64,000 bases of DNA from an uncultured Nitrososphaerota archaeon (lineage in GTDB: Archaea; Thermoproteota; Nitrososphaeria; Conexivisphaerales; DTJL01): positions 160,001-224,000 of the forward strand of contig CAWJIE010000002.1 of NCBI GenBank assembly GCA_963842885.1, written 5' to 3'. The translations under genes and the position numbers were made by a program. Shown one piece after another: positions 1 to 33,174 of this stretch. Every line of letters begins with the position of its first letter. The first letter of the stretch is position 1. The notes beneath the pieces were generated by a model. It did no database searches. It was given only the letters and a program-made list of their open reading frames with translations, and was not told the origin of the DNA.

Positions 1-720
1 TGGTTCGCCAACGCTGTCCGCGGGATGGGCGCCTGGCTGGACCTTGCATGGGTGCCCTGGGTCGCTGGGCGGCCCTGCTTGGCCTGCCTACTGGGCCCTG
101 ATGTCCCCGGAGAGGCACGCCGTACGTCTGAGGGAGATTCTCTCTAATGCAGTTCATCGCCGACATCTCCTGGTGGGCCTTGCGGCTGGGGCCCTCGCCG
201 TCGTGTTGGTCGCTGCCGTGGTCGCCCCCTTCGCACCGTTCATCCAGGGCACAGCCTTCGCCGACATCTCCGGGGTCAGGGACACGGGGCCCACCTGGAA
301 CGCCGGCCTCAGGGCGCCCTTCGAATACCTGGCGCAGGAGCACGCGTCCTTCGGCGGCACCGCCTTCCTGACCTACGCAGCCTACGGCATCGAGTACTAC
401 GCGGGCGTGCCTTCTCTGGACATGAACCAGTCGGCCCAGGTCGCCCCCCTGCAGCCCTACATGCGGGACCCCTCGGCGCTCAGGGCCTTCCTTCTCGACC
501 ACGGGATAAGGTACGCCCTCTTCCCCCTGCAGACCAACACGGCGAGGACGTAGGCCCCAGCGCCTACGAAATGATGTCGAGGACGGCCTTCGGAGGCCTG
601 ATCGAAGGTTCGCTGGTCCTGAAGACCTGGGATGGCTGGGCCCTCTACGACCTTGCGCAGGGTATGAAGCTTGAAAAGAGCGGGTCCCCCGATGGAAAGT
701 CGGCCTGCATCTGTTTATAA
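1..720 (+). CDS. C-terminal part of a membrane protein, probably GT-C fold glycosyltransferase-like (partial, frameshifted near 540)
   Basis: ORF 44..553 has a TM helix followed by a soluble domain (LRAFLLDHGIRYALF). The shifted frame continues ...VLKTWDGWALYDL to a TAA at 718-720. Sits beside glycosyltransferases. Confidence 0.45.
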
Positions 721-753
721 GTGTAAGCCGCTGAGCGTATCCATCGATTCCAG

Positions 754-2691
754 ATGAGGAAGTCGCTCGTCGCCGGCTCGGTATTTCTTATCGTCCTGTT
801 GGTTTCCACCGTGGCCGTATACATGTTCCTGCAGACTGGCACGAGCCTTCCCCCCGCCACCCCCACCACCACCCACGATGAGCTGCAGACGCTGGGCTGG
901 AGGACCCTGGTCAACATCACGAGGGGAGGGGACCCGCCGCCGACTGTGCGGTGGGACAACATCTACGGCGGGACGGGCCCCGACACGGGCCAGTCGGCCG
1001 TGGAGACCAGCGACGGCGGCTTCGTACTGGCCGGCGACACCAACTCCTTCGGGGTGACGTCCCAGCAGGCCTGGCTCGTCAGGACCAACTCCACGGGAGG
1101 GGTCATCTGGAACTACACCTACGGAGGGACCGCGGCGAACTACGTCGAGAAGGTGGTAGCCGCCGGGGACGGGGGTTTCGTCGTGGCTGGCTACACCAAC
1201 TCCACGGCGCCCATCGGATACACGCCCGCTAGGGGGGCGGGCGGCTACGACGGCTGGCTCTTCAAGGTCTCTTCGACGGGCTCCCTGACCTGGGAGAAGC
1301 TCTTCGGCGGCGCTGCGGACGACTTCGTCTACACGTCCAGAAGACGTCCGACGGCGGCTAATCATGGTGGCGGCACTCCTACGGAGCGGGGGGTCCGGGG
1401 ACTCTTGTTCTCATCAAGACGGATTCAGACGGCAACCACAGTGGAGCACGACCTTGGACGGGACGGCGAGCGACGACGTGGCCTATCGCGTCGCCCAGAC
1501 CTCCGACGGCGGCTACATCCTGGCCGGCGAGACCCTGTCCTCGGGCTCCGGCGACATCTATGTCATCAAGACCGACCCAGCGGGAACCGCAGAAGAGCAC
1601 GAGCTTTACGGCGGGGCCGGGGTCGACGCGGCCTACGGGGTCGTCCAGGCCTCCGGCGGGGGCTACATCATCGAGGCCAACACGAAGTCCTTCGGCACGG
1701 GTGCCTCCGAGATATGGATGCTCAAGCTGGACACCTCCCTGACACTGTGCTGGGACTACACCTACGGAGCCGACCTATGACATCTTCGGCTACTCCCTCC
1801 TCCAGTCGGAGGACGGGGGCCTGCTCGTGGCTGGCTCGATCAACTCCAGCCTCGGTACGCAGGACGTCTTCATCATGAAGGCCGACTCTCTGGGTAGCCA
1901 GATCTGGAACATGACCTTCGGCGGGCCGCGGGACGACGTGGCCTACTCCATCGCCGCCACCGGAATCGATGGCTATATCGTGGCGGCGACGACAGACTCG
2001 TTCACCGCCAACAACGCCGCCTGGCTGATAGACCTGGGCAGCGACTTCTTCCTCTATCCCTACGTGCAGAACGGGGTGCTGAACGCCACGATGATAGCGG
2101 GCCTCAGCGAGCCTCACGGTCCGTCCGGCGCCGCCAACTCGCTCGATACGGTGGCCGGCATGGAGGTGGCAGAGGGGATGGGGGCCTTGAAGTCCTCCGG
2201 ATACGGCCAGTACTTCTTGGACACGGACGTCTCTGCCTACAACTACACTTCAGCTGCCGTGACCTACATCTACAACAACCTGACCAACATAATCACGATC
2301 GGCGGCCCCGGCGTCAACCAGGTCACATACAGGTACATCGCTAACCCCTGGTACGCTCCGGTCCATTACGAATTCAACTCGACTTCCGGGAAAGTTCGAC
2401 ATTATATCGCCGACACGGACCTACTATGAGAGCGATTGGGTCAACTCGACGGCCGACCTGGTCGTTCTTGAAAGCATCTTCGTGGCCAGCGAAGGGAGAT
2501 ATGTGATGTACCTGGGCGGCTTCGGTGGCCCGGCGACCAGGGCCGCCTGTCTCATAATGCAACTCCAAGGAAGCGGCCTCCTCCCGTTCACGCTGCAGGG
2601 GAGGGCGATGATCATCCAGTGGGTCGACTCCAATGCCAACGCCAAGGTGGACTCGGGAGACACATTCAAGGTCATTGAAATCGTCCCCTAG
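754..2691 (+). CDS. Secreted/membrane-anchored beta-propeller repeat protein with S-layer-like C-terminal domain (3 frameshifts)
   Basis: N-terminal hydrophobic anchor. Repeats of the form T.DGG(F/Y).LAG.T.SFG...W...(Y/F)GG run across ORFs 754..1878, 1364..1780 and 1827..2429. NIITIGGPGVNQV resembles an S-layer C-terminal motif. Ends in ORF 2482..2691. TTTATAA at 714-720. Confidence 0.7.
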
Positions 2692-2739
2692 GTCTCCCCA
2701 AGACGCTGGAGCCTAGGCCCTACACTTAGACCGGACGCC

Positions 2740-3494
2740 TTACTGCACCAGCCGCACGATGCGCCGGCCCAATGAGAGGAGAGCCCTGGGGGGATGATGC
2801 CTGACGACCAGGTTGCTCACGTCAAGGATGAGCAGCGCCCATCTCCTCTGAAACCTCTGTGAAAGCCCGTTTCCATCGGCCTTCTCACAGATGGTCATTG
2901 TGTCGATAAGCCTCAGGTTCCTGAACCGGCTTGACTTGTATACGACATCGCGGACGGCCCTTGGTACCCCCGGCCATACGCTGTTGACCGTGTCGTGAAT
3001 GGCCATGACCCCCCGTCCACGACCTTCGGGAACCAGAGCTCCACGTCGAGCTTCGCGTCTTCATACTCGTGAGACCCGTCGACGAACACGAATGCCACCC
3101 TGTCCTGGACCTGAGTCGCAGCCTCAGCGGAGGTCATCACATAGGGGACGACCAAGTCTTCGATCCCCGCACGCTTCATGTTTGCCTTGAAGCCCTCGAA
3201 GGTCCCCTGCAGCACAAGTTCTCCGGTGTCGGCTGAGCCACCGCGATGTGGATCGATGGCATAGACCTTGAGGCCTGAGCCCGACCTGGACCCCTTCGCC
3301 AACCAGGTGGTGGACTTCCCCTTCCAGGAGCCGATCTCCACGATGACCCCGGGGGAACGGCATCCTCTGGCCAGGGCGAACAGGGCCTCTCCCTCAGCGT
3401 CGCTCAGCCAGCCCTCGGTCTTGCCGGCGAGCTTCCTTGCCTCTTCCAACAATGGGTCCCTCCCTCGAGGCACGACCGCCATCAGCGAAATCAA
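2740..3494 (-). CDS. Class I SAM-dependent methyltransferase (Methyltransf_24-like), frameshift near 3005
   Basis: EGWLS..E, VEIGSWKGKST, FVFVDGSHEYE, continuing as (M)AIHDT in ORF 2740..3006. Confidence 0.85.
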
Positions 3495-3653
3495 GAATGG
3501 TCGAAACAGAGGACCGTATAAGAGTAACGGGCGACAGGGCAGAGCTCGCCTCCTGAATGTTCTGGAACGCCTGAAGTCAGTTGAATAAGACTCCCAACAG
3601 AAATGTAATTCATTAGGGGTCGTTTAAATGGAGAATCGCAAAGAGGCCTCGGA

Positions 3654-16284: not shown

Positions 16285-16632
16285 CTACTTCATCAGCTCC
16301 GCCATGGCGACGTGGAGCTGCCGGGGGGCCGCCATGGATAGGGCCGTCCTCAGCCTCTCCGCCGCCTGCAGCTGCCTTTCGATCCTCTTCCTCTGGTTCC
16401 TCTCGTGGACAAGGCGGTCGACATCCTCCCCCATCATCGTCTTCAGGAGGGAGGCGAATCCGGGGGACATCTGGCCCAGCCTTATCCTTTCAATTTCCGC
16501 GTCGACTCCCCTGTTGCAGATGCCCCTGATGGAGGAGAGCATGGCCCCGTCGGCGGCGGCCGCCTCCTCCCTGACCTTCCCGAGCCTTTCGGCGAGGAGC
16601 AGAGCCTCCTCCGAGAGCCTACGCTGGCCCAC
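16285..16632 (-). CDS. Hypothetical coiled-coil protein
   Basis: Overlaps the end of the upstream coiled-coil gene. Helical, charged. Confidence 0.55.
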   Translation of the reverse strand: MGQRRLSEEALLLAERLGKVREEAAAADGAMLSSIRGICNRGVDAEIERIRLGQMSPGFASLLKTMMGEDVDRLVHERNQRKRIERQLQAAERLRTALSMAAPRQLHVAMAELMK

Positions 16633-20053: not shown

Positions 20054-21073
20054 GTGTATGCCCCGGGCAAGCCGGATTCGACCATCGTGAAGGCAGAGGG
20101 CCTTTCCAAGAGCTACGGGAAGTTCAAGGCGGTGGACAACATCAGCTTCGACATCAAGGAGGGAGAGATCTTCGGCTTCCTCGGCCCGAACGGTGCCGGG
20201 AAGACCACCACCATCAACATGCTCACGACCCTGATCAGGCCCACCTCGGGAGACGCCACCGTCTGCGGCTACGACATCAGGAAGGACGCAACTGAGGTGC
20301 GAAGGAACGTCGGGGTGGTGCCGCAGGAGTACACGGCCGACGAAGACATGACAGGCCTGAACAACATACTCCTCTGCGCGGACCTCTACGGGATGCCCAG
20401 GAGCGATTCCAGGGAGCACGCGGCCGAGCTCCTAGAGCTGGTGGAGCTGCAGGACGCAGCCCACAAGAAGGTGAGCACCTACTCGGGCGGGATGCGCAGG
20501 AGGCTGGAGCTCGCCTGCGGCCTCATAAACTACCCCAAGGCCCTCTTCCTCGACGAGCCCACCCTGGGCCTAGATGTTCAGACACGCGCTGCGGTCTGGA
20601 AGTACATCAAGACCCTGAAGGAGGAGTACCAGATGACCCTCTTCCTGACGACCCATTATCTGGAGGAGGCCGACCTTCTCTGCGACAGGATCGCCATAAT
20701 CGACCACGGCCACATCGTCAGGATTGGCACCCCCGGTGAACTGAAGGCGAGCGTCGGTGGAGACATAATCGTGGTCGGAGTCGATGAAGCCACGCCCGAC
20801 ATCTCATCCGACATCGCCAAGGTGGCCTCCGTCAAGGAAGTCAAGCGCAACGGGAACGATTACCGCATTAAGGCCGAGCTCGGCGAGCAAGCCTCGCCCC
20901 AGATAATGGACCTCGTGCGGTCGAAGGGGCTTCACGTAACGAAGATTTCGCTGACCAAGCCCACCCTGGACGAAGCATATCTGGAGTTCACCGGCCGAAG
21001 CCTCAGGGAAGAGGAAGGAAACAAGTGGGAGGCACGTTCCCAGCGGCGCACGGTGGGGAAGGCCAGGTCGTAG
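20054..21073 (+). CDS. ABC transporter ATP-binding protein (DrrA-like)
   Basis: GPNGAGKTT, YSGGMRRRLE, LFLDEPT, TTHYLEEA. Confidence 0.95.
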   Translation: MYAPGKPDSTIVKAEGLSKSYGKFKAVDNISFDIKEGEIFGFLGPNGAGKTTTINMLTTLIRPTSGDATVCGYDIRKDATEVRRNVGVVPQEYTADEDMTGLNNILLCADLYGMPRSDSREHAAELLELVELQDAAHKKVSTYSGGMRRRLELACGLINYPKALFLDEPTLGLDVQTRAAVWKYIKTLKEEYQMTLFLTTHYLEEADLLCDRIAIIDHGHIVRIGTPGELKASVGGDIIVVGVDEATPDISSDIAKVASVKEVKRNGNDYRIKAELGEQASPQIMDLVRSKGLHVTKISLTKPTLDEAYLEFTGRSLREEEGNKWEARSQRRTVGKARS

Positions 21074-21086
21074 GGGTAGGATCACA

Positions 21087-22028
21087 ATGGTTGAAACAGG
21101 AGACGGAAAGATCGCGGAGGCCTCGGGAAGCAACGCGCAGGTGGAGAGTCAGTCCAGCGCCGCTGCGGGCGTCAGAGAGAAGAGGTTCAGGGCGGCTCCG
21201 AAGCTGAGCAGGAGCCCCATCCACGGCCTCTGGTCGCTGACGAACAGAGACCTGAGGAAGTGGTACACGAACCCCGTGCAGCTCATCGCTTCGATGATCC
21301 AGCCTGTCATCTGGCTGGCCCTCTTCGGCAAGGCCCTCAACTTCGGGGCGTTCATAGCGGGCGCAGGCGGCTCTCAGGCCGAGCAGAACGCCGTCCTCAT
21401 GGGCTTCTTCGGCACCACCAGCTACTTCTCCTACCTGGCCTGCGGGATGCTGGCCTTCGTGATACTGTTCACGTCGGCTTTCAGCGGGCTCTCCGTCGTG
21501 TTCGACCGCAGGTTCGGCTTCCTGAATAAGGCGCTGAGCACGCCTGTGGCTCGAGGCTCCATCATCATGAGCAAGGTCCTCCAGAGCGTCGGAAGGTCAA
21601 TCGCCCAGGCTGCGATGGTCTTGATCATAGCGGTGGTCCTTGGCATGGACACTTCGCACTTCTCCATCCTCGGCATCATCGCCGCCTTCGTCATACTCTT
21701 CCTCATGTCCATGGGGCTCTCTTCTCTCTTCGTAATGTTCGCACTGAGGTCGGGCGACTGGCAGACGCAGATCGCCATAATCAACGTAATCAACCTCCCC
21801 CTCCTGTTCGCCAGCAACGCCCTGTTCCCGGCGAAGGAGATGCCCGCTTGGCTTCAGGGAGTGGTGAACATCAACCCCGTAAGCTACACCAACGACGCCG
21901 TCAGGTCCCTGCTGCTCGGATCGACGGCCCACTACGGGCTCGCCGTCGACTTCGTCTACCTCACCGGGTTCGCCGTCGTGCTCTGCGCCATCGGCGTGGT
22001 CCTGTCATGGAGGTTCCTGTCGAAATGA
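21087..22028 (+). CDS. ABC-2 type permease (DrrB-like)
   Basis: QPVIWL.LFG, DRRFGFL, MP.WLQ...INP.SY. Six TMs. Confidence 0.92.
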   Translation: MVETGDGKIAEASGSNAQVESQSSAAAGVREKRFRAAPKLSRSPIHGLWSLTNRDLRKWYTNPVQLIASMIQPVIWLALFGKALNFGAFIAGAGGSQAEQNAVLMGFFGTTSYFSYLACGMLAFVILFTSAFSGLSVVFDRRFGFLNKALSTPVARGSIIMSKVLQSVGRSIAQAAMVLIIAVVLGMDTSHFSILGIIAAFVILFLMSMGLSSLFVMFALRSGDWQTQIAIINVINLPLLFASNALFPAKEMPAWLQGVVNINPVSYTNDAVRSLLLGSTAHYGLAVDFVYLTGFAVVLCAIGVVLSWRFLSK

Positions 22029-22173: not shown

Positions 22174-22938
22174 TCATTCCACATTGAAGCGCAAGAATAC
22201 AGTCTGTCCCCACACATCGGCAACAACCACAGTATAGGGGCCAGCAGGGAACTGATGAAAGGCGACCACTGAGGAGCCCCCCGTATACGCCGTATAGTAT
22301 CCAGCAGCCCCGTCCAGAGGGCCTCCCTCCGTATACTGCCCGTTTGTGCTGATGACTGACTTGAAGGGGCTCAAGGAGAAAATGATGTCTTCGATATTCG
22401 TCCAGTTGGTGCCTGCTAAATCTACGAACTCCTCCGCCGCCGTATGGCTGCCAGGGAGGAAGGTGATCCTGGTCAGTGTCAGGGGCGCAGCGCAGGGAAT
22501 CGGATAGGGCTCGGCCAGCTGTAGTGGAGGCCCGGCCGTCGAGATGTCGCCCGAAGTGTAGTTGCCCTGGAACACCGCGATGACGAGAATCGGCTGCCAA
22601 TTGCACACGTTCGTGCTGTACGGCCCCCACGCTGTGATGTTAGAATAGGTGGCGAAGTCAGGGTACAACGTGAGGTCTTCTTTGAGGGTGTTCACAAGCT
22701 CCGCCGTAACGCCTATCGCTTCGCCCTGCCGAATCCCGGTCGAGTTCAAGGTCACAGAAAGCTTCAGCCCCAAGGCCGACGTCAGGCTGGCGTTCTGAGG
22801 CGTTGAGTTGAGGCCGCCGGATGACGAATTGCGGCCGCTGGTGGATGGTGGGAAGAATACGAAGGCTAACCCGACGACGTCGAAGAGCATGAGGACCAGG
22901 GCCACTCCCACAAGCACCTTGCTCGCCCCTCTTCTCAT
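22174..22938 (-). CDS. Membrane-anchored secreted hypothetical protein
   Basis: N-terminal TM, beta-rich body with a Cys pair, C-terminal GPYTVVVADVWGQTVFLRFNV. Confidence 0.7.
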   Translation of the reverse strand: MRRGASKVLVGVALVLMLFDVVGLAFVFFPPSTSGRNSSSGGLNSTPQNASLTSALGLKLSVTLNSTGIRQGEAIGVTAELVNTLKEDLTLYPDFATYSNITAWGPYSTNVCNWQPILVIAVFQGNYTSGDISTAGPPLQLAEPYPIPCAAPLTLTRITFLPGSHTAAEEFVDLAGTNWTNIEDIIFSLSPFKSVISTNGQYTEGGPLDGAAGYYTAYTGGSSVVAFHQFPAGPYTVVVADVWGQTVFLRFNVE

Positions 22939-23003
22939 GCCAGCTCCATCGCTAGATTGTCTCCACAGCATCCATAAGCCTAGTCTTTAGAACGACCGCC
23001 GTC

Positions 23004-23819
23004 TTATTGGCTGCCCAAACCGCCACCGGTGAGGGATACCTGAGGCTCGACGGCCACGATCCTCTCCCTTAGCTTGGCTGAGACCTCAGGAAGAAGCTTC
23101 GCCGCGACGTCCCCCATCTTGAGCTGCTGCCACTCAGAGGGACGAATGACTTGGGAGAACCCCATCTTCTCGGCCAGCTCGTATGCCTCCTTGGCCTGGG
23201 CCTCCTCCCCGGAGAAGATGGAGTCCTGGAGGCGCGAAAGCAGGAAGACCGCCGCGTAGATTGCTTGGGCCTTGGAGGCGCCCAGCTCCTTCTCCTTGGC
23301 TTGCAGGGCGACCCCCAGCGCCGCCTTCCTCTCCTCGACGGGCTTGTAGATGCCCAACAGGATGGAGCCGACGACGTTCTCTTCCTTGGGTGGAGCCTGA
23401 GCCCAGAGACCTACGAACGCCTCTCTCGGGTTCTCGCGGACGGTCCTGAGTGCCTCAAACGCGGCGCCCCTGGCTGAGACGAACTCTCTCAAGAGGGGAA
23501 ACAGCTCGTCGCAGAGCTTGCCGTTGCGATCGGCCATCTCCAGGGCGGGCCTGCGGAGGATGGAGGCCAGCTCCAAGACGGTGGAGCCCCTTTCGGAATG
23601 GAGGGAAAAGTCGCCCACCCGCAGGTCCGTCTCCCCCAGCTCCACCACGGTCCTCTCGTCGTACGCGAAGGCCGTCAGCTGGAGGCGCTCCTTCTTGAAG
23701 AGCGAGTGTCTCTCGTAGGTCGCCACTACATTCCTTTTCTCTTCGTCGACTTCCACCGTCACAGAGGAGTACTCTTTTCCCTTGTAAGTGGCGAAGACGA
23801 ACTCCAGCGACCTGCTCAT
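23004..23819 (-). CDS. Hypothetical protein, N-terminal PH-like beta domain plus helical bundle (gene 5 of tubulin-like operon)
   Basis: 4-bp overlap with the upstream gene. About 85 aa of alternating beta strands ending in a helix. Confidence 0.75.
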   Translation of the reverse strand: MSRSLEFVFATYKGKEYSSVTVEVDEEKRNVVATYERHSLFKKERLQLTAFAYDERTVVELGETDLRVGDFSLHSERGSTVLELASILRRPALEMADRNGKLCDELFPLLREFVSARGAAFEALRTVRENPREAFVGLWAQAPPKEENVVGSILLGIYKPVEERKAALGVALQAKEKELGASKAQAIYAAVFLLSRLQDSIFSGEEAQAKEAYELAEKMGFSQVIRPSEWQQLKMGDVAAKLLPEVSAKLRERIVAVEPQVSLTGGGLGSQ

Positions 23820-24859
23820 CGTATCGCCTCCATGCTCAGGTCCTTAGCCTTCATGGCAACCTTACGGTAGCCCTCCTCAAGGTACTTGGGGAGGGGAAGG
23901 CCCTTCACGCCGTATAGCACGAGGAGGTCGTAGAAGCCGTACCTGCTCATGCCCTCCACCACCTTCGACTCCGAGCTGATCAGGTCCGGGAACCTCTTGC
24001 AGTATTCATCGAAGGCCTTGGCTATGTCGCCGGCAAGTTCCCTCCCTGCCAAGGCGAAGAGGTGGGCCATCACGACATCTTCGTTGGGGACGGCCGACGA
24101 CATCACCTCCTTTTGGACCGAGAATGCGTCGGGGACCCCCTTGTACACCTTCCCGGACGCCGCCAGGAGGGGCGAGAAGGCGTGGAAGGTCACGCCGAGG
24201 CGGACGTCCTTCTTAACGAAACCGGAGACCTCCTTCAGGTTGCCCAGGAAGTAGTTCATCACCCTCAGGAGGGCCGCGCTCCCCGTGAGCAGCCCTTCGT
24301 CCTCGGTGAAGCAGGCCAGGTCATCGATGAACTCCTGATTGACGAGGATGAGCGGCTCCTTCCTCCGGACGGCCGCCTGGAGAGAAACGAAGCTGGAGCT
24401 CTTCTCCATGGCCGTGGCTCCCCTCTCCGGCACCAGGGCCATGACGACGGAGTTGGAGTCAAGGATGGGGGACGAAAGGAGGGCTGGCGCCAAGGGATGG
24501 GCCGTGTCGACCACGACGAACCTGTACCTGCACCGGTCGTAGCCGACGAGCCTGAGCCAGAGCGTGATGTCCTTCGAGTAGGCCTTGTAGTATTCGAGCC
24601 ATGTTCCTCCCTCCAACTCCTTCAGTGAGAGGCCCGATGCCTTCCTCTCCTCCGTCGCCCCCAGGGAGACCTCACCCGCCCAGGCGCCGCCGACCTGGGG
24701 AGCAGGGAGGCCCAGAGACAGGACCTCCATCTCACCGAAGTTCGGCGTGACCTTAGGGAGGGTTATCGCGGGGAAGAGCTCCGAGTACAGGACGGGGGCC
24801 CCGCACTGGTCGCAGGTCACCAAGGGGCCCACTTCGTGGCCGTTGACGCACCTAGGCAT
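23816..24859 (-). CDS. Zn-ribbon plus degenerate tubulin/FtsZ-like fold protein (gene 4)
   Basis: CVNGH...CDQCG. Then VLSLG, VVVD, VMALVP, LILVNQ and a C-terminal LLVLYGV in tubulin-like order. No GGGTG motif. Confidence 0.6.
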   Translation of the reverse strand: MPRCVNGHEVGPLVTCDQCGAPVLYSELFPAITLPKVTPNFGEMEVLSLGLPAPQVGGAWAGEVSLGATEERKASGLSLKELEGGTWLEYYKAYSKDITLWLRLVGYDRCRYRFVVVDTAHPLAPALLSSPILDSNSVVMALVPERGATAMEKSSSFVSLQAAVRRKEPLILVNQEFIDDLACFTEDEGLLTGSAALLRVMNYFLGNLKEVSGFVKKDVRLGVTFHAFSPLLAASGKVYKGVPDAFSVQKEVMSSAVPNEDVVMAHLFALAGRELAGDIAKAFDEYCKRFPDLISSESKVVEGMSRYGFYDLLVLYGVKGLPLPKYLEEGYRKVAMKAKDLSMEAIR

Positions 24860-27113
24860 TCTTGACCACCATGGCCTCGTCGGAGGAGTCGAACGACACC
24901 TTCCTGTGAGTCAGCATATACAGCTTGATGTAGACTATGGAGGCCTCGCGCTGGAAGGGTAGCTCCGAGATGGGGACGTATTCCCGCTTGGCGACCGCCG
25001 CCTCGAGGACCTTCCTCGCTATGGGATACTGCGAGAGGAGTATGAGATTCTGCTCGTCCACCCTCCTCTTCTCCTGGAGGTTGGAGAGGACGGAGGTGGC
25101 CTCCTCCACGAAATTGGAGAGGGAGCCGAAGGTGGGCTTGCTCGCGGAGAGCTCTTGGGACAGCGTCTGGAGCCTCGTCGACTGATCTATGGACTCGAAG
25201 CGTATGACCTTGGTGGCCCCAGGCGTGAGGGACCTTATGAGACGCTCGAGCTGTTCCGACTCCTTCCGCCAGTTTTCGGTGGCCTCCTGAAGGAGGAGGG
25301 AGGTGGCTGCGAGGGCCACGGCGTAGTCGGGGGAGGAGGCCGGCTCGGCGGGGGTGAGCTTCTCCATCTCGGCTTCCAGCCTCCCCCTCCTTTGGCCGTC
25401 GAGGAGCGCGCCCAGCCCCCTGACCTTGGCCGTCAGCTCCTTCACCTTGTCCTCCAGCTCCTGCTTCGACGTGTTCCTGAAGTTCAACCAGTACTCCTCG
25501 GAGACGAGCCTCATCCCCGTGACGTACTCTCCCGAGTCGAAGAGGTAAGAGGCGTTCACCGGAGGGGTGAGGTCTTGGCGGTCAGTGATGAAGTTGTATG
25601 CGGTGCTGACGGCTGTGTACTGGGTGAATAGCTCGGATGCAGCATCCCGGACGCCCTTCGTGAGCTCCTTGTAGCTTTCTACGGCCGCCTCCAGCGACAG
25701 GAGGCCGTCGATGTTGTCCAGAGTGGGGAAGCGGCCCGCGGCCTTCGCCTCCTCCAGCATGTTGTTGTGGGTCGAAGCCAGGGCCGAGAGGGAGGTGAGC
25801 TCGTTGATGACCTTAATCCTGAGGTTCTCGGGCATCTTGTCGAGGCTGGGGAGGACCTTCCCCTGCAGCTCCGCCGTCCAGTTCACCACAGTCTCGTAGC
25901 TGGCGGTGCCGATCCCCCTATCGACGTCCTTCATCAGGGCGGAACACTCGTCGACGGCGAGCTTCTCGGGGCGGACGGATACGGTGGGCGCTTCGGAAGC
26001 TATCGTCTGGATGGCACGGGACGCCTCCTCCAGGAGCTCCTTGTTCTTGGTCAGCAGGGAGGCGAGGTCGTTCTTGGCGAACTCCAGGCGCTCCAGCCGC
26101 TGAATCGAGTACTCCCTCACGGTGAAGATGAGCCCCACGCCCAGAGCACATGAAAGGAGGAGGACGTCGTCTAGGGGGTCCGTAACGAGCGACGTCTGGT
26201 AGCCCCCCGCCGATGAGGGGGAGAGCGTTGTGATGAGCGCTACGAAGGTGACGGCCGTCACGAGCCCGGCCACCAGCGGAGAAAGGACCTTGACCAGCTG
26301 GCGAAACCTTTCGAATGCCCCCAGCCGGCTCAGCGACGTGACCACTATTCCGGCGACGGAGGCTGACGCGCTGAAGATGATGCCCAGCAGGATGACGGGG
26401 ATGACCAGGTAGGTCGAGTCGGCTGAGGAGATGTACGTGGTCACCTGGGTGGCATAAGGGGATTCGATGTTTAAGGGGAAGACGAGGGGGACGTTGAGCC
26501 CCGAAAGGGAGGGGGCCATGTAGTCGTGGAGATCCTTCAGGTAGGAGAAGATGACCGGTATATGTGTGGAGAGGACGCTGGCCTGGAAATAGATGCCGTT
26601 CTCAAGGAGGAGGAGGGGGATGAGGGTGCTGACAAAGGTGACGGAGACAGGACCGATGCTCTCCAGCCCCCCCACGGCCGCCGCCGCCACGATGAGGGCT
26701 ATTGAAAGGTAGTAGAAGGGGGTGAGCATGAGGGCGACGGCCATCACGGCAAGCGCCATCGACGACGGCTCAATCCTAGCGCTGACCAACTCGAAGACGA
26801 AGAGGAAGGCCATCAGGCCCAGGGTCAGGAGGCCGTTGGTGGTCTTGACGACGTGCAGGAGGCCGAAGCCCAGAAGCTGCCAGCCGATGGTCGCGAAGGC
26901 GAAGAGGGCCAGCATGACGGAGGCCCAGCGCGGCCTTCTGAGGGCGGCCAGGCCCAGCCCCAGGGCGACAAGGAGGGCCAGCACGGGGAAGCCTGAAGCA
27001 GTGGGGAGGAAGTTGACGACGGAGAGCCAGACGAAGGCGGAAAGGGCGATGAGCGGCGACGCGGTGTACTTGTTGATTGTGGCTCGCGCTTTGGAGGTGG
27101 TCCCTAAGGTCAC
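24852..27113 (-). CDS. Polytopic membrane protein with large helical cytoplasmic region and C-terminal winged-helix-like end (gene 3)
   Basis: About 9-10 TMs in the first 335 aa, then ~400 aa of amphipathic helices/coiled coil. Confidence 0.8.
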   Translation of the reverse strand: MTLGTTSKARATINKYTASPLIALSAFVWLSVVNFLPTASGFPVLALLVALGLGLAALRRPRWASVMLALFAFATIGWQLLGFGLLHVVKTTNGLLTLGLMAFLFVFELVSARIEPSSMALAVMAVALMLTPFYYLSIALIVAAAAVGGLESIGPVSVTFVSTLIPLLLLENGIYFQASVLSTHIPVIFSYLKDLHDYMAPSLSGLNVPLVFPLNIESPYATQVTTYISSADSTYLVIPVILLGIIFSASASVAGIVVTSLSRLGAFERFRQLVKVLSPLVAGLVTAVTFVALITTLSPSSAGGYQTSLVTDPLDDVLLLSCALGVGLIFTVREYSIQRLERLEFAKNDLASLLTKNKELLEEASRAIQTIASEAPTVSVRPEKLAVDECSALMKDVDRGIGTASYETVVNWTAELQGKVLPSLDKMPENLRIKVINELTSLSALASTHNNMLEEAKAAGRFPTLDNIDGLLSLEAAVESYKELTKGVRDAASELFTQYTAVSTAYNFITDRQDLTPPVNASYLFDSGEYVTGMRLVSEEYWLNFRNTSKQELEDKVKELTAKVRGLGALLDGQRRGRLEAEMEKLTPAEPASSPDYAVALAATSLLLQEATENWRKESEQLERLIRSLTPGATKVIRFESIDQSTRLQTLSQELSASKPTFGSLSNFVEEATSVLSNLQEKRRVDEQNLILLSQYPIARKVLEAAVAKREYVPISELPFQREASIVYIKLYMLTHRKVSFDSSDEAMVVKNA

Positions 27114-29770
27114 GCTGATCCACGCCCTTTCGCCCTAGGCGAAGGGCCGCTCAGCTTGGAGATCAGTTCAGCGAGGTCCGTGATGCCGTGCTCCAACAGG
27201 AAGGAGCGGAACATGACGCGCTCCACCTTGCGGACGCCGTCGGCGTCGTTCCTCATTCCCTGAAACTTCTCCAGCTGCTCGACTGTGGCCTTGGCGAAGA
27301 TTATCAGGAATGTGATGGTCCATGGGTCCACCTGCGGTATCTGGCGGATAGAGATGCTCTTGCTTGCCTCCACGCTGGAGAAGATGTTTAGGGTGCTCGA
27401 AAGGTTCACCTGGAGGTCCTGGTCCCAGAGCCCCTGGGGGATGCCCACAGTCGCCCATATCAGGTCGGAGCGGTAGCCGTCGTTTAGGCCGGCGTAGTTG
27501 GAGACGCTGAATATGCGCATGTAGCTCTTTACCACGTCCCTGAAGCGGTCCCTGTCGACTATCTCCCTGAGTATGCCCTCGCCCTTAAGCGAGGCCTCCT
27601 CCTCCGTGAGTATCTTCTTCAGTATCTTCTCCTGTTCGTCGTCGCTGAGCTCGACGACCCTTTCGAAGTAGCTCCCCGTGCCCGAGATGCTGCTGAGCAT
27701 GCTGTTGAGCTCGGCCGTCTTGCCGACGATAGAGTTAAGAGACTTCCTGTACGGTGAAGTGACTTCGAGGGACTTCTCCAAGGACGTCAGGATGTCCAGC
27801 TCGGAATGGAGCCTGTCCACCTCCGCCTTCCTCTCCTCGAGCGCGGTCTTCTGGGCGCCTATCTCACCCTTCACGGACTCAAGGTGGCGCCGGATGACCT
27901 TCCGTCTGCCGCTGATGTCCAGCCTTATCTTCTGGAGCTCCCCCTTGAGCCTCGTCTCCTCCGTCTCCTTCTGCGCCAAGAGGCGCATGAGGGACTCCAT
28001 CTCCTCCCCCGCCTCCTTGAACCTGGACTCCAGGTTCTTCCTTACCACCCTCACGCCGGGGATGTACTGGTCCGACATCTTGATCTCGGTCTCGGGCTTC
28101 GTCAGAATAGTCCCCGCCGTCTTGAACAGTGGGGTCACCTCCGTCTCGCCCACGGTGACGGCCCTCTTCCCCTCCGGGCTCTGGTCCTTGGCGAAGCGTA
28201 TCTTCAATTCGTCGGCGAGGGCCTTGGTCCTCAGGTACGTGCCGAAGACTTGAATGGCGCCGTTGACCAGGTTGACGAAGTTGATGTAGGAGCGTATCTG
28301 CCTGAGCTGGCTGGAAGTCACGAACTTGCTCGCCGTCAAGCTGCTTTCGACGTCGGCGAGGCTGGCGGCGAGCCCCTTGGTGAAGTCCTCGTAGGTCCTG
28401 CTTATCTCCGAGATGTCCTGGCTCCAGCGGCCTATCTGCTGCATCACGGAGTACTCCACCGTGTCCTCGGAGAAGGCCATGGCCTTCAGCGCCTTGGCCC
28501 ACTTGTCGTTGTAATATGCGGCGAAGTCCTCTATCCCCTTGACCTGCTTCTTGAACTCGAGATCATACTTGCCCGCCCTGTGTATGACGTCCTCCACTTC
28601 GGCGTCGAAGGACTCCGGCCTGTAGTTGTTGATGGAGATGAGGTGCCTCCTGAAAAGCTCCACCAGTTCGATATACCGCCTCTTCAGCACGTCGTCGATC
28701 TGAGAGAGGGACTCCCTCTTGAGGTTGACAAAGGAGCCCACCGACTCCAGGAGCTTCAGGTACTCGTGCAGGTACTTCAGGTAGTCCTCCAGGGGGTAGC
28801 GGATCTTGAGGTAGGCGATGTTGTGGACCCAGTTCTGGCCGAAGTCGTTGTTCGTCCCGACGCGGCTGAGGAGGTCGGCCAGGTCGAAGTTCATCATAAC
28901 ATGGACGATGTCGACGATGGCCCCGTCCAGCTCCTTTTTAGCGCTGAGAAGGGAGCTCTTGTTGTTGTAGACAGGGTCTAGAGGTAGGAAGAACATGGCG
29001 GTGAAGGGGTTCCTGTATGCCCCGCCATACGCCTTGATCACCCGTTCGTTGGCCTCCCTGTCGAAGAGGAGTTGCGCCTCCATCAGCGTAGCATAGGGGG
29101 CCGGTCCCCGGGCTAGGAGGTCGTCGGCCGAGCTAGGGAGTATGCCCAGCCCCACTATTGGGACGGCGGATCCCAGTTTCGCCCTCAGGTGGCGGGCGAA
29201 GTCGAAGATGAGACCGCTCCCCGTGCCTCCTCCCAGCCCGAAGACCAGGAGGACTATGGGCTGATACTTGGAGGTGAGGACCCTGTCCTTGTAGACGGAC
29301 ATCACGCTGTTCAGCTCGACGTAGTGGTAGTAGTTCAGGGCGTACACGGCCTTGCTGAGCGCCCTCTGCCTGCCGACCCCCCCGGCTAGGGGCGGGATGG
29401 ACATGGAGGACTGGATCCACGGCCTGTAATCATTGACGGTGACGCCATCCTTTTCGAGGTACTTGGAGTACTTCTCCATGAACTCGAACAGGGCGTCGGG
29501 GGTGTTGAACTTGATATTCAGGGGCTTGAGCCACAGGCGATCGACGCCGATTCCCTTCTCCTCAAGCTTCGCCATGGCCTCCTTGTAGGAGGCCTGGAGG
29601 GAGACCAGGTCCCCATCGGCCACGTCGAGGGCGAGGCAGGCGATGCGGAAGTCCTCGGTGGCGAGGAGGCGTGCCAAGCGCTCGCTCTCTATGAGAGTCT
29701 GGATGACGTTGGCGCCCGTGCCGCCGAGGCCTATGACGTGGATGGAGGCGAAGACGTTGGCCTTGCTCAT
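27110..29770 (-). CDS. Tubulin/FtsZ superfamily GTPase with ~400-aa coiled-coil insertion (886 aa; gene 2)
   Basis: T1 IGLGGTGANV, T3 GGVGR.R, signature FGLGGGTGSG, ILP, T7-like NFDLADL. Then coiled coil and a C-terminal alpha/beta domain. Confidence 0.92.
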   Translation of the reverse strand: MSKANVFASIHVIGLGGTGANVIQTLIESERLARLLATEDFRIACLALDVADGDLVSLQASYKEAMAKLEEKGIGVDRLWLKPLNIKFNTPDALFEFMEKYSKYLEKDGVTVNDYRPWIQSSMSIPPLAGGVGRQRALSKAVYALNYYHYVELNSVMSVYKDRVLTSKYQPIVLLVFGLGGGTGSGLIFDFARHLRAKLGSAVPIVGLGILPSSADDLLARGPAPYATLMEAQLLFDREANERVIKAYGGAYRNPFTAMFFLPLDPVYNNKSSLLSAKKELDGAIVDIVHVMMNFDLADLLSRVGTNNDFGQNWVHNIAYLKIRYPLEDYLKYLHEYLKLLESVGSFVNLKRESLSQIDDVLKRRYIELVELFRRHLISINNYRPESFDAEVEDVIHRAGKYDLEFKKQVKGIEDFAAYYNDKWAKALKAMAFSEDTVEYSVMQQIGRWSQDISEISRTYEDFTKGLAASLADVESSLTASKFVTSSQLRQIRSYINFVNLVNGAIQVFGTYLRTKALADELKIRFAKDQSPEGKRAVTVGETEVTPLFKTAGTILTKPETEIKMSDQYIPGVRVVRKNLESRFKEAGEEMESLMRLLAQKETEETRLKGELQKIRLDISGRRKVIRRHLESVKGEIGAQKTALEERKAEVDRLHSELDILTSLEKSLEVTSPYRKSLNSIVGKTAELNSMLSSISGTGSYFERVVELSDDEQEKILKKILTEEEASLKGEGILREIVDRDRFRDVVKSYMRIFSVSNYAGLNDGYRSDLIWATVGIPQGLWDQDLQVNLSSTLNIFSSVEASKSISIRQIPQVDPWTITFLIIFAKATVEQLEKFQGMRNDADGVRKVERVMFRSFLLEHGITDLAELISKLSGPSPRAKGRGSA

Positions 29771-30720
29771 AGGGCGTCACCCAGCTGCTCCTTCAGCTTC
29801 TTCAGGCGCTCCGCCAGCGCCTTGTCGTACTTCCCTGCCGTGACTTCGAGCGACGCCAGCTCCTTCTGGGCGTCGCTGACGATGCTGCCCGCGAAGCCGC
29901 GCCTGGACCTGGTCCTGACCCACATCAGGGCCAGGAGGAAGGCCACCAGCGCCAGGACGACGGTGGAAACCAGCAGCAGGGTGTAGACCGTGGTGCTGGG
30001 CGGGGCGGGGAAGTTCTGCGGATTGAGCGTGTTCAACAAGTCCGTGGCCGTCACGGGGAGGCCTGACGTGTAGATGGTCTGGGCCTGAGCCAGGAGCCTG
30101 TTGACTACGCTGGTGTACGCCGGGTCAATCTGGCCCGAGGAGATGAGGTTGGACTTCTGTGAGTAGGTGTTGAGATAGCTCTGGATGGCGTCGTCCGATA
30201 TCGTGATGCTGTAGTTCGCCACACGGGAGCCACCTGTCACGAAGGCAGTGATCAGGTCGAAGCTGGGCTTGGCGAACCTGAGGCTGAAGGGGATTCCTTC
30301 GCTGTTGTTGAGCACTTGCGTCGTGAAGGTGGCGGGGATGGTGAACACGGCAGAGAGGGTGACCTCACCCTGCACCTGGGTGAATATCACAGCGGGGGAC
30401 CCTGGGGTGAAGGACGCGGGGCTGTATCCAGCGTAACCAGGCGTCAGGACGTACCAGTATTGGGAGCCGCTGAGGGTCATGCTGGGGTCCAGGAAGACCG
30501 TAAAATTGGAGATCGACTGGGTGAACGGGACTTCCAGGGTGATGGTTACGTTGTAGTTGTGACCAGCCAGCAGCGGCTGACCGGCCGCGACGTCCACGTT
30601 CCCCGTGAAGTCATGCACTGAGTAAGCGCTCACCCAGTTCGTCGTAGCGGCATGGGCAGGAATCGCCAGAAAGGCGAGTGACAGAACTAACAGTAGCGAG
30701 AGGCCTCTCTGCCTTCTCAT
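29767..30720 (-). CDS. Secreted single-pass membrane protein with cytoplasmic coiled-coil tail (gene 1)
   Basis: Signal peptide ending AHA, beta-rich ectodomain, PAPPS linker, TM, RTRSRR stop-transfer, helical tail. Confidence 0.8.
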   Translation of the reverse strand: MRRQRGLSLLLVLSLAFLAIPAHAATTNWVSAYSVHDFTGNVDVAAGQPLLAGHNYNVTITLEVPFTQSISNFTVFLDPSMTLSGSQYWYVLTPGYAGYSPASFTPGSPAVIFTQVQGEVTLSAVFTIPATFTTQVLNNSEGIPFSLRFAKPSFDLITAFVTGGSRVANYSITISDDAIQSYLNTYSQKSNLISSGQIDPAYTSVVNRLLAQAQTIYTSGLPVTATDLLNTLNPQNFPAPPSTTVYTLLLVSTVVLALVAFLLALMWVRTRSRRGFAGSIVSDAQKELASLEVTAGKYDKALAERLKKLKEQLGDAL

Positions 30721-30723
30721 AAA

Positions 30724-30750
30724 GGAGGTAGAATCTACCTCCGAATATAA
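30724..30750 (-). promoter_or_regulatory. TATA box plus perfect 19-bp palindrome (putative operator) of the tubulin-like operon
   Basis: Minus strand reads TTATATTC GGAGGTAGA-T-TCTACCTCC TTT ATG. Confidence 0.65.
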
Positions 30751-30893: not shown

Positions 30894-31736
30894 ATGAAGG
30901 GGAAGGTCGTCCTGCTCACCGGTGGTAACTCTGGCATCGGCAAGGCCGCCGCCATAGAGCTGGCGAAGATGGGGGCGGAGCTTACCCTGGTCTGCCGCCA
31001 CAGGGAGAGGGCCGAAGCAGCCAAGAGCGAAATAGTCTCTGAAAGCGGCAACTCCTCAGTCGACCTAATCATAGCCGACCTCCTCCCGCAGAGGGAGGTC
31101 AGGAGGGCTGTGGCGGAGTTCCTGTCTTCCCGCACGAGGCTGGACGTCCTGATAAACAACGCGGGGAGCAACTTCCCCAGCTATTCGGAGACTGAGGACG
31201 GTATCGAGAGCGCCATGGCCCTGAATTACTTCGCGCCCTTCCTCCTCACGAACCTCCTGCTGAAGACGCTGGAGTATAGCGCCCCTTCGAGGGTGGTCAA
31301 CGTCTCCTCCGCGGCTCACTTCGGCGCGAACCTAGACCTCAGCGACCTGAACGGGCGAAATGGCGTCGGGATGGGCGGGCTGGGGTCTTACGGCCGGTCG
31401 AAGCTCGCCCTAATGCTGTTCACCAACGAACTGGCGAGGCGCATGGAGAGGAGGGACGTCACGGCCAATTCCCTCCACCCTGGAGCCGTAAGGACCCACA
31501 TCTGGGCCCATTCGGGAACCTTCAGCCCTCTTGTGAGATTCGCCTCCCTCTTCATGATCGGCCCCGAGGAGGGGGCGAAGACGACGGTGTACCTGGCATC
31601 GTCCCCTGAGGTGGAGGGCGTGACAGGGAAGTACTTCGAGAAGTGCAAAGCCAGGCAGTCCTCGGCCAAATCCTATGACGCGGAGCTGGCGGCTAGGCTC
31701 TGGGACATGAGCCTCAAGATGATCGGGCTGGCCTAG
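30894..31736 (+). CDS. Short-chain dehydrogenase/reductase (retinol dehydrogenase-like)
   Basis: TGGNSGIG, LINNAG, VSS, YGRSK, HPGAVRT. Confidence 0.95.
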   Translation: MKGKVVLLTGGNSGIGKAAAIELAKMGAELTLVCRHRERAEAAKSEIVSESGNSSVDLIIADLLPQREVRRAVAEFLSSRTRLDVLINNAGSNFPSYSETEDGIESAMALNYFAPFLLTNLLLKTLEYSAPSRVVNVSSAAHFGANLDLSDLNGRNGVGMGGLGSYGRSKLALMLFTNELARRMERRDVTANSLHPGAVRTHIWAHSGTFSPLVRFASLFMIGPEEGAKTTVYLASSPEVEGVTGKYFEKCKARQSSAKSYDAELAARLWDMSLKMIGLA

Positions 31737-31835: not shown

Positions 31836-32426
31836 TCAGGAGGCCGACACGATGATGATGAGCAGCGCGAGGCCGGCGGAGAAGAGCGCGTGTTTCCATC
31901 TGGCTCCACTCAGAAGCCTGACGGCCAAGGCCGCAGAGACTATCGAGGAAGCCGCCCAGACGACCTCGAACGAGATGGCGTAGAGGCTGGTGCTGACGAA
32001 GGCGGCGTAGTACACCGGACCGTGAAGAGGGTAGGCGGCGTAGGTCAGGCTGAAGAGGAAGGTCAGGTAGCCGCCCATGGCCATGGATTGCCACATCCTG
32101 AGCTTGTACTTCCCGCGCGAAACGGTGAGGACGGTCATGAAGATTATGAACCCGCCAATCATCAGCTGCCCGCCGGCAAGCAGGAGGCAAGGGATGAGGA
32201 AGAGGTCGAACCCCACCTTCAGACGATAGCTCGAGTCGGGGAGACCGGGGATGAGGATGTCAAGAAAGAATGCGTATGTCGTGAAGGCGAGGATCAGGAA
32301 GGTGACAGCCAGCACCTTGTACCTGGTGAGCTTGTCGGAAGGCTGGAGCGAGCCCAAGGCAGTTCTAAACGAAGAGCTTGTTACTGAATCTTGACGAGAG
32401 GAACCTTTCCTCCAAGATGAGCCCAC
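31836..32426 (-). CDS. Hypothetical multi-TM membrane protein
   Basis: About 5 TM helices. Overlaps the end of the CPBP gene. Confidence 0.65.
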   Translation of the reverse strand: MGSSWRKGSSRQDSVTSSSFRTALGSLQPSDKLTRYKVLAVTFLILAFTTYAFFLDILIPGLPDSSYRLKVGFDLFLIPCLLLAGGQLMIGGFIIFMTVLTVSRGKYKLRMWQSMAMGGYLTFLFSLTYAAYPLHGPVYYAAFVSTSLYAISFEVVWAASSIVSAALAVRLLSGARWKHALFSAGLALLIIIVSAS

Positions 32427-33174
32427 GCGCCTGAGCGGCCGCTAACTCAGCTGGAAATGCGCCTCCTACGTAAGGCACCGCTGCCTTCCTCTGCGCTTGG
32501 GCTATCTCCAGGATCGCGAGTGCGAGGTCCACCATCATGATGACCCCCAGGGCCGCATAGGAAACGTATCCGAAGGGGGAGGCCGGCAGGGCGGTGCTGA
32601 GGTAGGCGAACAGGTTCCATGCGGCGTGGATGCTGGCCGTGACGTAGACGCTCCGGGTGACCAAGAAGACGGGGGCGTAGACCAAGCCCAAGAGCACGAG
32701 GATAGTCAGTGAGATGGGGTCCTGGAACTGCTGAGCCCCGAGGTGGAAGACGGCGAAGAGGACGGCGGAGGCCACGGAGGCGGTGACCATGCCCAGCCCT
32801 CGAAGGCGTCCCGCCACGTACCCCCGGAAGAAGATCTCCTCGCACAGAGGGGCGACGACCACCGCGAACATTATGGTGGGGGCGATGTCGGACTGCCACA
32901 GCATCGGCACGAAGACGAGAGGGAGAAGGAGAGCGGCCGCGAAGCACTTCCAAGACAGGGCGGTGGCCCCTCTAAGGCCCTGCTCGGAGGCGAAGTCCGA
33001 CCTCCTCAGCCTCGCGGAGACCAGAGGGATCCCCACCAGGAGGCCCAGATAGGTCGCCAGCGCCGCGGAGACGTAATGATATGAGGGGGAGTTCACCAGG
33101 ACGACGGCCCCGAGGGAGACGGCGAAGGCTAGGCCCAGCTCCAGGACGTCGCGAAATGCCGGCTTCGCCAACAT
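32365..33174 (-). CDS. CPBP (CAAX/Abi) intramembrane glutamic endopeptidase
   Basis: EEIFFRG, FAVFH, HAAWN motifs. Confidence 0.93.
   Translation of the reverse strand: MLAKPAFRDVLELGLAFAVSLGAVVLVNSPSYHYVSAALATYLGLLVGIPLVSARLRRSDFASEQGLRGATALSWKCFAAALLLPLVFVPMLWQSDIAPTIMFAVVVAPLCEEIFFRGYVAGRLRGLGMVTASVASAVLFAVFHLGAQQFQDPISLTILVLLGLVYAPVFLVTRSVYVTASIHAAWNLFAYLSTALPASPFGYVSYAALGVIMMVDLALAILEIAQAQRKAAVPYVGGAFPAELAAAQARGLILEERFLSSRFSNKLFV

Follow-up and report, generated by a model that had tools for sequence, protein, structure and literature searches.

A predicted tubulin fold interrupted by a helical stalk and encoded beside a putative pseudo-tubulin and membrane proteins in an uncultured Nitrososphaerota archaeon

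Few branches of the tubulin superfamily are as divergent as the FtsZl1 proteins. The family was defined from a head, a coiled coil and a C-terminal domain (Makarova and Koonin, 2010, Biol Direct 5:33, PMC2875224), and that paper describes the T6-H7/T7 region and a tubulin-like C-domain as unidentifiable, and the C-terminal domain as mostly alpha-helical. According to the same paper, FtsZl1 operons contain vWA proteins in the majority of cases and often kinases, a P-loop GTPase or OmpA-like proteins, associations that are frequent and not universal, and a role in membrane remodeling was predicted from this gene context. Tubulin_2 proteins, which have neither FtsZ_C nor Tubulin_C, were left out of the trees in a later study (Santana-Molina et al., 2023, PMC9871819). 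The literature found portrays FtsZl1 as a shortened FtsZ-like head that bears unrelated extensions, and the family has been omitted from superfamily phylogenies. Here we describe a protein of this kind, P0001, encoded in a 64,000-nucleotide stretch of DNA (the window; positions 160,001 to 224,000 of contig CAWJIE010000002.1, assembly GCA_963842885.1) from an uncultured Nitrososphaerota archaeon. Its open frame of 886 amino acids lies at 27110..29770 of the window on the minus strand, and its C-terminal part is predicted to complete a tubulin fold that is interrupted by a long helical stalk.

Within the tubulin-FtsZ superfamily, P0001 falls in the FtsZl1 / Tubulin_2 branch. Pfam Tubulin_2 (PF13809) matches residues 12-214 (E 1.3e-10, 41.5 bits against a cut-off of 27), a sub-threshold Pfam Tubulin match falls on the signature loop, and profile-profile comparison by hhalign joins residues 6-329 to 13 classical FtsZl1 proteins with a probability of 99.9 (E 8e-31). 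The architecture is that of FtsZl1, with an FtsZ-like head, an extended coiled coil and a C-terminal globular domain, and the sequence-only reading of this DNA had missed that the layout of P0001 is the one published in 2010; both the family and its head-stalk-tail arrangement are already described. Like FtsZl1, P0001 combines a GGGTG(S/T)G head, a long coiled-coil region and a C-terminal domain with an operon of membrane proteins. Unlike FtsZl1 as described, its C-terminal part completes the tubulin fold in the predicted model and it has an invariant T7-like loop; its partners are a pseudo-tubulin and two membrane proteins rather than those listed for FtsZl1 operons, and at about 886 amino acids it is shorter than the classical FtsZl1 proteins (about 1,100 amino acids).

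Related proteins are numerous. A word-index search gave 311 proteins with E <= 0.001 among 8,000 scored candidates, and nearly all of the best 120 of these 311 are 860-910 amino acids long and cover 97-100% of the query. Those of the listed relatives that carry a name from their source are called "tubulin-like domain-containing protein" and are assigned to Nitrososphaerales, Bathyarchaeia, Sulfolobus tengchongensis and a Dehalococcoidia bacterium. The homolog attributed by its source to S. tengchongensis is 43% identical to P0001, and a cultivated carrier therefore appears to exist. From the 120 listed relatives, 53 were chosen to span 94% to 34% identity and were aligned with P0001 (alignment A1, 54 sequences). 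Solved relatives are reached by sequence only among CetZ, tubulins and FtsZ, through the T1 and T4 loops. Three other assignments were rejected. P0001 is not FtsZ proper (TIGR00065 at 21.7 bits against a cut-off of 295.2, and no FtsZ_C match), nor is it a dynamin-like GTPase (no dynamin family in Pfam and NCBIfam scans, and only the tubulin superfamily at the top of the fold searches) or SMC-like (TIGR02168 scores 15.2 bits where 567 are required, a weak coiled-coil likeness below the threshold).

By its motifs and family, P0001 has a tubulin/FtsZ-type head with predicted GTPase activity. Each motif string quoted in the sequence-only reading is present exactly once in the protein. The T1-type loop GLGGTG occupies residues 14-19 (29714..29731, minus strand) and the tubulin signature loop T4, GGGTGSG, residues 180-186 (29213..29233, minus strand), and the latter lines up with the FtsZ and CetZ signature in both HMMER and hhalign. 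The glycines of both loops are invariant in A1, and the invariant positions in this part of the protein (54 of 54 sequences) are G14, G16, G17, G19, N21, G180-182, G184, G186, F295, D296 and D299. On the combined evidence of Pfam, the structural model, the superposition starts at residues 7 and 8, and hhalign, residues 1-326 (28793..29770, minus strand) hold the N-terminal GTPase domain, helix H7 (274-293), the T7-like loop, helix H8 (297-304) and strand S7 (315-324).

The sequence-only reading had proposed that the coiled coil is inserted into the C-terminal domain of a tubulin fold, and this proposal is supported by structure prediction. An AlphaFold2 run on A1 gave a single full-length model with a mean predicted local distance difference test score (pLDDT) of 88.8 and a predicted template modeling score (pTM) of 0.77; in either half, most blocks of 10 residues have a pLDDT of 86-96. 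Secondary structure assigned to the model with DSSP shows a Rossmann-like alternation as far as strand 258-263, then a long helix (274-293), a short loop with NFD, helix 297-304 and strand 315-324. The segment 327-695 is exclusively helical and includes helices of 53, 40, 56 and 47 residues. Strands return at 771-777, 806-812 and 818-828 with helices between them, and short terminal helices extend to residue 873. The succession that had been read from the sequence, namely one beta strand (IAYLKIRYP, residues 318-326), a helical and heptad-rich chain to about residue 745 and a late return to alpha/beta structure (LIWATVGIP, 770-778; ISIRQIP, 806-812; DPWTITFLIIF, 815-825), is thus reproduced in the model.

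This model shows the two-domain fold of the tubulin/FtsZ superfamily. A Foldseek search against PDB placed CetZ2 first (E 8.8e-7), followed by CetZ1 and many FtsZ. In VIA superpositions, CetZ1 (4b46) aligned over 326 of 330 residues (Z 26.8, root-mean-square deviation (rmsd) 3.6, model range 8..848) and CetZ (3zid) over 311 of 342 (Z 26.7, rmsd 3.2, model range 7..850). Tubulins aligned over about 350 of their 410-440 residues (Z about 22, rmsd 3.3-3.7, model range 7..870), and FtsZ likewise reached Z about 22 with model ranges from 8 to 828-841. A search independent of Foldseek over 48,161 representative chains returned CetZ, TubZ, tubulin, FtsZ or PhuZ in all of its top 16 rows (Z 17.5-26.7); the rows below these were generic matches to the stalk hairpin or far weaker, and the ranges of the tubulin-type matches were unchanged. 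For 326 of 330 CetZ1 residues to align within a model span of 841 residues, the alignment has to pass over about 515 residues of the model and to draw the tubulin C-domain from the segment beyond about residue 740. The rest of the tubulin C-terminal domain and the C-terminal helices would accordingly occupy residues 740-873 (27152..27553, minus strand), a range marked both by the ends of the superpositions at 848-870 and by a match to relatives without a stalk. An unrelated fold at residues ~750-860, which had been set beforehand as the outcome contrary to the insertion, was absent; together with the strand at ~315-325 the C-terminal segment completes the predicted fold, in alignments that cover whole CetZ, FtsZ, TubZ and tubulin chains. 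On the superpositions, strand 315-324 would pair with the strands between 771 and 828. Taken together, we consider it highly probable that residues about 8-326 and about 740-870 of P0001 form one tubulin fold, with the stalk inserted after S7, as the model predicts.

CetZ (4b46, 4b45, 3zid; Z 25.9-26.8) is the best structural match of P0001 and shares with it the two-domain fold with helices after S10. Unlike P0001, CetZ is contiguous and has no stalk insertion, and the likeness in sequence is confined to the signature loop (E 0.001).

Independent evidence for an insertion comes from relatives that lack the stalk. The A1 profile was searched against 1.84 billion cluster representatives, and listed representatives of at least 450 amino acids were re-scored locally. 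The search gave 271 proteins at E <= 0.001, 111 at 1e-10 and 48 at 1e-30, and its matches include 13 full-length representatives and one more distant protein of 1,069 amino acids. Four metagenomic proteins of 473-588 amino acids (P0157, P0158, P0160 and P0169) match the profile from position 8 to about 290 and again over about 754-869, and the two matches are separated by merely about 90-100 residues; E-values of 3e-11 and 2e-13 were obtained for the C-terminal match (profile positions 754-869). Since these proteins carry both halves nearly contiguously, the halves of P0001 belong together and its middle is an insertion. The four proteins may represent either an unsplit ancestral form or a secondary loss of the stalk. 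Conservation points in the same direction. In the 16 most distant rows of A1, the GTPase part is 50% identical to P0001, residues 271-325 are 48%, residues 326-745 26% and residues 746-860 42% identical, and therefore both ends of the protein appear to be under like constraint, with a fast-evolving middle. Six residues of the last 130 (W772, P778, W782, P816, W817 and E860) are invariant in all 54 sequences.

The inserted helical stalk extends over residues 327-739 (27554..28792, minus strand), as delimited by the DSSP helices, by the heptads, by its absence from the relatives of 473-588 amino acids and by its low conservation, which is the lowest in the protein. In a heptad scan (42-residue windows, 3.5-residue hydrophobic periodicity, z >= 2.5 against shuffles), all 15 significant windows begin at residues 323-673, and the head has none. 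The wide VIA search delimits an antiparallel coiled-coil hairpin formed by helices 559-614 and 622-668 (27767..28096, minus strand), in which the stalk ends. Matches of residues 559-699 to many antiparallel coiled coils of unrelated proteins reach Z 10-13, which is the generic level for helical hairpins; 3u0c is an example (Z 12.6, rmsd 1.5, 106 residues). Sequence matches of the stalk to SMC, keratin and the ClpB M-domain are weak. The claim of a "~400-residue coiled coil" consequently holds as far as a helical, heptad-rich insert of that length is concerned, but a classical antiparallel coiled coil is confined to about 559-668/699, and the rest is multi-helical. The return segment at about residues 703-739 is highly conserved in A1 and may be a neck rather than part of the stalk, perhaps associated with the head.

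The order of secondary structure elements in the model places the insertion between S7 and the helix before S8, which we take to be the S7-H9 (M-loop) position of tubulin nomenclature. The M-loop is the lateral contact element of microtubules, and an insert at S7-H9 should leave the longitudinal interfaces free.

An FtsZ-like T7 loop within the first ~310 residues had also been noted from the sequence. The string concerned, NFDLADL, is present at residues 294-300 (28871..28891, minus strand), directly after the long core helix, and is presumably equivalent to the catalytic T7; NFDLAD (294-299) lies between model helices 274-293 and 297-304, and its F295, D296 and D299 are among the invariant positions. 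For comparison, 17 FtsZ_C-containing loci were taken from genomes of the same phylum, and 16 FtsZ proteins were extracted from them. The motif N-x-D-x-x-D (NLDFAD, NIDYAD and the like) occurs in 15 of these 16 archaeal FtsZ, 100-101 residues past the signature loop, and P0001 has one such motif, NFDLAD, 114 residues past its own. NFDLAD is therefore likely, rather than proven, to be the T7 loop, because the profile alignment with the 16 FtsZ stops short of T7.

A second predicted tubulin fold is encoded in the same operon. P0004 (347 amino acids, 23816..24859, minus strand) has an N-terminal C-x3-H-x7-C-x2-C zinc knuckle followed, in its model, by a full tubulin fold at residues ~40-346, and no transmembrane (TM) helix. 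A glycine-rich T1 or T4 loop was not found in its sequence, which reads VVVDTAHPLAP after the fourth strand. An alignment of 16 sequences of P0004 relatives (A2) served for the AlphaFold2 run (pLDDT 88.5, pTM 0.82), and an Asp where the core helix ends, D218, is invariant in it. Foldseek placed CetZ 3zid first (E 1.6e-11; Z 20.9-21.8 for the CetZ structures), and in the wide VIA search BtubA reached Z 22.1 (293 residues aligned, model range 42..346), with the tubulin superfamily filling the top 17 rows and the next row at Z 7.6. Sequence methods give no link: when the two families were compared by hhalign, P0004 matched P0001 with a probability of 0.1, and the P0004 profile had no match among PDB sequences. 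The kinship of P0004 to tubulin is therefore visible by fold only. The arrangement is like that of alpha/beta-tubulin and BtubA/B in that two tubulin folds are co-encoded, that Z is about 22, and that the C-terminal helices of P0001 are matched to residue 870. Unlike those systems, P0004 has lost the nucleotide loops and has a zinc knuckle, and the pair is known here from genes and models; unlike alpha/beta-tubulin, P0001 has a stalk of about 400 residues at what is presumably the place of the tubulin M-loop.

The operon consists of six open reading frames (ORFs) in a row on the minus strand, P0003, P0001, P0002, P0004, P0125 and P0126, whose ends overlap or nearly abut. TM helices were predicted by a simple hydropathy scan. 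P0003 (317 amino acids, 29767..30720), the first gene, has a predicted signal peptide, an extracytoplasmic domain, a TM helix at residues 248-266 and, on the cytoplasmic side, a helix about 50 amino acids long, and its stop overlaps the start of P0001. The stop of P0001 in turn overlaps the start of P0002 (753 amino acids, 24852..27113), which has about 9 predicted TM helices within residues 21-332 and then a soluble helical part of about 420 amino acids. Beyond P0004 follow P0125 (271 amino acids, 23004..23819), a soluble protein with no TM helix, whose gene overlaps the stop of P0004, and P0126 (265 amino acids, 22174..22971), with an N-terminal TM helix or signal anchor and an extracytoplasmic domain, whose gene may close the operon, with uncertain membership. 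A TTATATT at 30744-30750, 24 bases ahead of the P0003 ATG, could be an archaeal TATA box. A scan for sigma-70 promoters and terminators, which is unsuited to archaea, found sites no more often than in shuffles. None of P0002, P0003, P0004, P0125 and P0126 matched a Pfam, NCBIfam or PADLOC family, and the soluble part of P0002 had no usable match in the ESM Atlas.

An operon of a stalked tubulin, a pseudo-tubulin, a single-pass surface protein and an about 9-TM protein is conserved. A scan of a genome collection matched 567 stretches, 88 of which encode a relative of P0001, and 80 loci were kept (24 from Chloroflexota, 22 from Bathyarchaeota/Bathyarchaeia, and the rest from Nitrososphaerota-type or other Thermoproteota). 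By tblastn, a P0003-like gene lies directly upstream in 63 of the 80 loci and a P0002-like gene downstream in 29 (21-43% identity); P0125-like matches occur in six, this protein being conserved among close relatives only, and P0126 has no tblastn match in any of the 80. P0004-like genes were found in 18 loci by tblastn alone. A word-index search yielded only four P0004 relatives, and the family was recovered by an iterative profile search of all ORFs of at least 100 amino acids in the 80 loci, which did not drift onto the FtsZl1 ORFs and which detected a P0004-like ORF in 62 of them. Of the 18 loci without such an ORF, 15 have less than 3.6 kb of downstream sequence. Locus L017 has, beside its regular cassette, an extra inverted pair of P0004-like (108-1154, minus strand) and P0002-like (1147-3528, minus strand) genes upstream, a paralogous half-cluster.

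The cassette may also have moved between domains of life. A quick maximum-likelihood tree of 71 rows was built from 68 of the 80 loci (12 truncated genes being omitted), P0001, the Sulfolobus-attributed protein and a long-branched outgroup, with which rooting is unsafe. All 22 Chloroflexota sequences (L020-L055) group with 12 Nitrososphaerota sequences (L019, L021, L032-L044, L074) with a Shimodaira-Hasegawa-like approximate likelihood ratio test (SH-aLRT) support of 100, and gene order is alike in the Chloroflexota loci and the Nitrososphaerota loci grouped with them. The grouping therefore suggests, from sequence comparison, that the cassette was transferred as a whole between archaea and bacteria. 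A homolog of 35% identity in a genome of the same taxonomic order (G075:C117:1535-4093) has one in-frame TGA, which might reflect an error of sequencing, a decayed gene (pseudogene) or recoding.

The explanation that we favor, with modest confidence, is a membrane-tethered assembly of the stalked tubulin that depends on guanosine triphosphate (GTP). In this scheme the heads of P0001 would bind GTP and associate head to tail, and the acidic T7 loop would complete the active site of the neighboring subunit, as in FtsZ and tubulin; the acid could come from P0001 itself (D296/D299) or from the pseudo-tubulin P0004 (D218). The stalks would stand out from the lateral face, and their binding to the helical portion of P0002 in the cytoplasm, to the tail of P0003 or to both would bring the assembly onto the membrane, where its GTP-dependent formation might organize or remodel the membrane or envelope. 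As to the single steps, we regard the GTP-dependent head-to-tail contact as evenly poised between true and false, and tethering through the stalk as plausible but a little short of even. A more far-reaching proposal can be put forward only tentatively, and we would sooner doubt than accept it as a whole: a two-tubulin, membrane-anchored cytomotive system, in which the stalked GTPase, with its stalk built in at the lateral (M-loop) position, co-assembles with P0004, which would supply or regulate T7, and in which the stalks would couple protofilament dynamics to membrane and surface proteins. Such a system would be a dynamin-like remodeler of the membrane or envelope built on a tubulin fold; it would be spread in TACK archaea and would have been exchanged between archaeal lineages and Chloroflexota.

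A number of findings weigh against membrane-tethered assembly and the elements on which it is built. A predicted model underlies the split fold, and the contact of S7 with strands 771-828 is indirect. In the profile-profile comparison with the 16 archaeal FtsZ (hhalign), the C-terminal part of P0001 is unmatched, and the alignment is confined to T1 (probability 24) and T4-H5 (probability 87); compared with the C-termini of classical FtsZl1, the same part gives E 0.044 and a probability of 1.2, and no sequence method joins residues 740-870 to the C-domains of FtsZ or CetZ. Regarding T7, the equivalence of D296/D299 to the catalytic residues is indirect and model-based, N294 is variable (retained in 29 of 54 sequences of A1), and the T7 site is not conserved in the 13 classical FtsZl1 proteins of about 1,100 amino acids, in which FD-x-A-D is missing. 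The same motif was not found in P0157, P0158, P0160 and P0169. Therefore, the T7-like loop is a property of the P0001 sub-branch, and T7-dependent hydrolysis is not general in the FtsZl1 family. The five partners and the flanking ORFs have no Pfam match to vWA, kinase, P-loop GTPase or OmpA, and the literature searched, with most subscription journals and supplements outside it, yielded no structural or experimental FtsZl1 study. Further, the distribution is patchy, with a P0001-type gene in four of 201 sampled genomes of the same class, own genome included, and in one of four other genomes of the genus, so that the stalked tubulin does not amount to a core cytoskeleton. At 87% completeness, the own genome has one Tubulin_2 gene, and FtsZ_C has no match anywhere in it at E <= 1e-10.

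The main rival to membrane-tethered assembly is a GTPase switch that does not polymerize, which we consider possible but doubtful. The stalked tubulin and the pseudo-tubulin would form a heterodimer or small oligomer, comparable to the alpha/beta-tubulin dimer or to a GTPase of nucleotide-dependent dimerization, and its GTP state would gate the membrane complex, for example when the surface protein P0003 is exported, assembled or anchored, without a filament. Active and degenerate tubulin folds are indeed co-encoded in 62 of the 80 loci, the stalk sits on the lateral face that tubulin presumably uses for sheet formation (S7-H9), and a patchy distribution speaks against a housekeeping cytoskeleton. 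However, the active subunit carries an invariant T7-like loop, which is what head-to-tail polymers need, whereas a fixed heterodimer would require just one T7, and all tubulin-superfamily matches listed in the fold searches belong to filament-forming families.

It is improbable, in our estimate, that the operon is an accessory conflict or mobile-element module, serving defense or a segregation function like that of TubZ/PhuZ, rather than membrane remodeling. Only the patchy spread suggests such a role, with which the hint of transfer between domains in the tree and the presence of TubZ and PhuZ among the structural matches (Z 17-23) are consistent. However, PADLOC found only coiled-coil-type LmuB matches in the stalk of P0001 and none for its five neighbors, the ORFs scanned around the operon included neither a TubR-like DNA-binding gene nor an integrase or phage gene, and the constant partners are membrane and surface proteins. 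Least probable of all, and very unlikely since stalk-less relatives bear both halves almost contiguously, is a model artefact in which the C-terminal segment is an independent domain docked by AlphaFold2 onto a tubulin fold truncated as the 2010 paper assumed, a view in keeping with the missing sequence link to FtsZ, CetZ or classical FtsZl1 C-termini and with a single full-length model from 54 sequences, but at odds with the high pLDDT of both halves, with the alignment of nearly complete CetZ chains (rmsd 3.2-3.6, Z about 26) and with a C-terminal part conserved like the GTPase part.

The sequence-only reading had likened P0001 to dynamin-like or SMC-like proteins. As an analogy of layout the comparison may stand: a nucleotide-hydrolyzing head would bear a long helical stalk that runs out and back, membrane association would be expected as for dynamin-like proteins, and the arms of SMC share a weak coiled-coil likeness with the stalk. 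Membership in either group does not follow, as the head of P0001 is a tubulin fold in the model and neither a P-loop G domain of the dynamin type nor an ABC ATPase, and there is no hinge, PH domain or paddle.

If the split fold is correct, FtsZl1-type proteins keep a whole, polymerization-competent tubulin fold, a 400-residue insertion is tolerated at a position of lateral contact, and the branch of P0001 retains a T7 loop and pairs with a pseudo-tubulin. The system would then represent a design for wiring a tubulin to a membrane complex without adaptors such as FtsA or SepF, and a natural system for the minimal requirements of tubulin-type assembly. A tail that completes the tubulin fold, a T7-like loop in this branch and a pseudo-tubulin partner appear to be new in print.

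Apart from P0001, the genome has a gene for another, divergent FtsZ-like protein (324 amino acids; contig C5, L082:967-1941, minus strand) with a weakened signature, GLGGSSGSN, and a Pfam Tubulin match of 37.8 bits over part of the model. Matches to Snf7/CdvB-like proteins in the genome are sub-threshold only. The genes flanking the operon are ordinary and of unrelated kinds, namely an ABC-2 transporter pair (20054-22028, plus strand), a short-chain dehydrogenase (30894-31736, plus strand), a CAAX-type protease (32365-33174, minus strand) and a multi-PAS histidine kinase (33394-35817, minus strand). Further along the window, two overlapping long ORFs of 431 and 370 amino acids at 16619-18758 (minus strand) have weak coiled-coil-type Pfam matches only (ZapB, DUF7310, apolipoprotein-like), and, judging from those matches, a gene for a coiled-coil protein may lie in this region, a few kb away from the operon.

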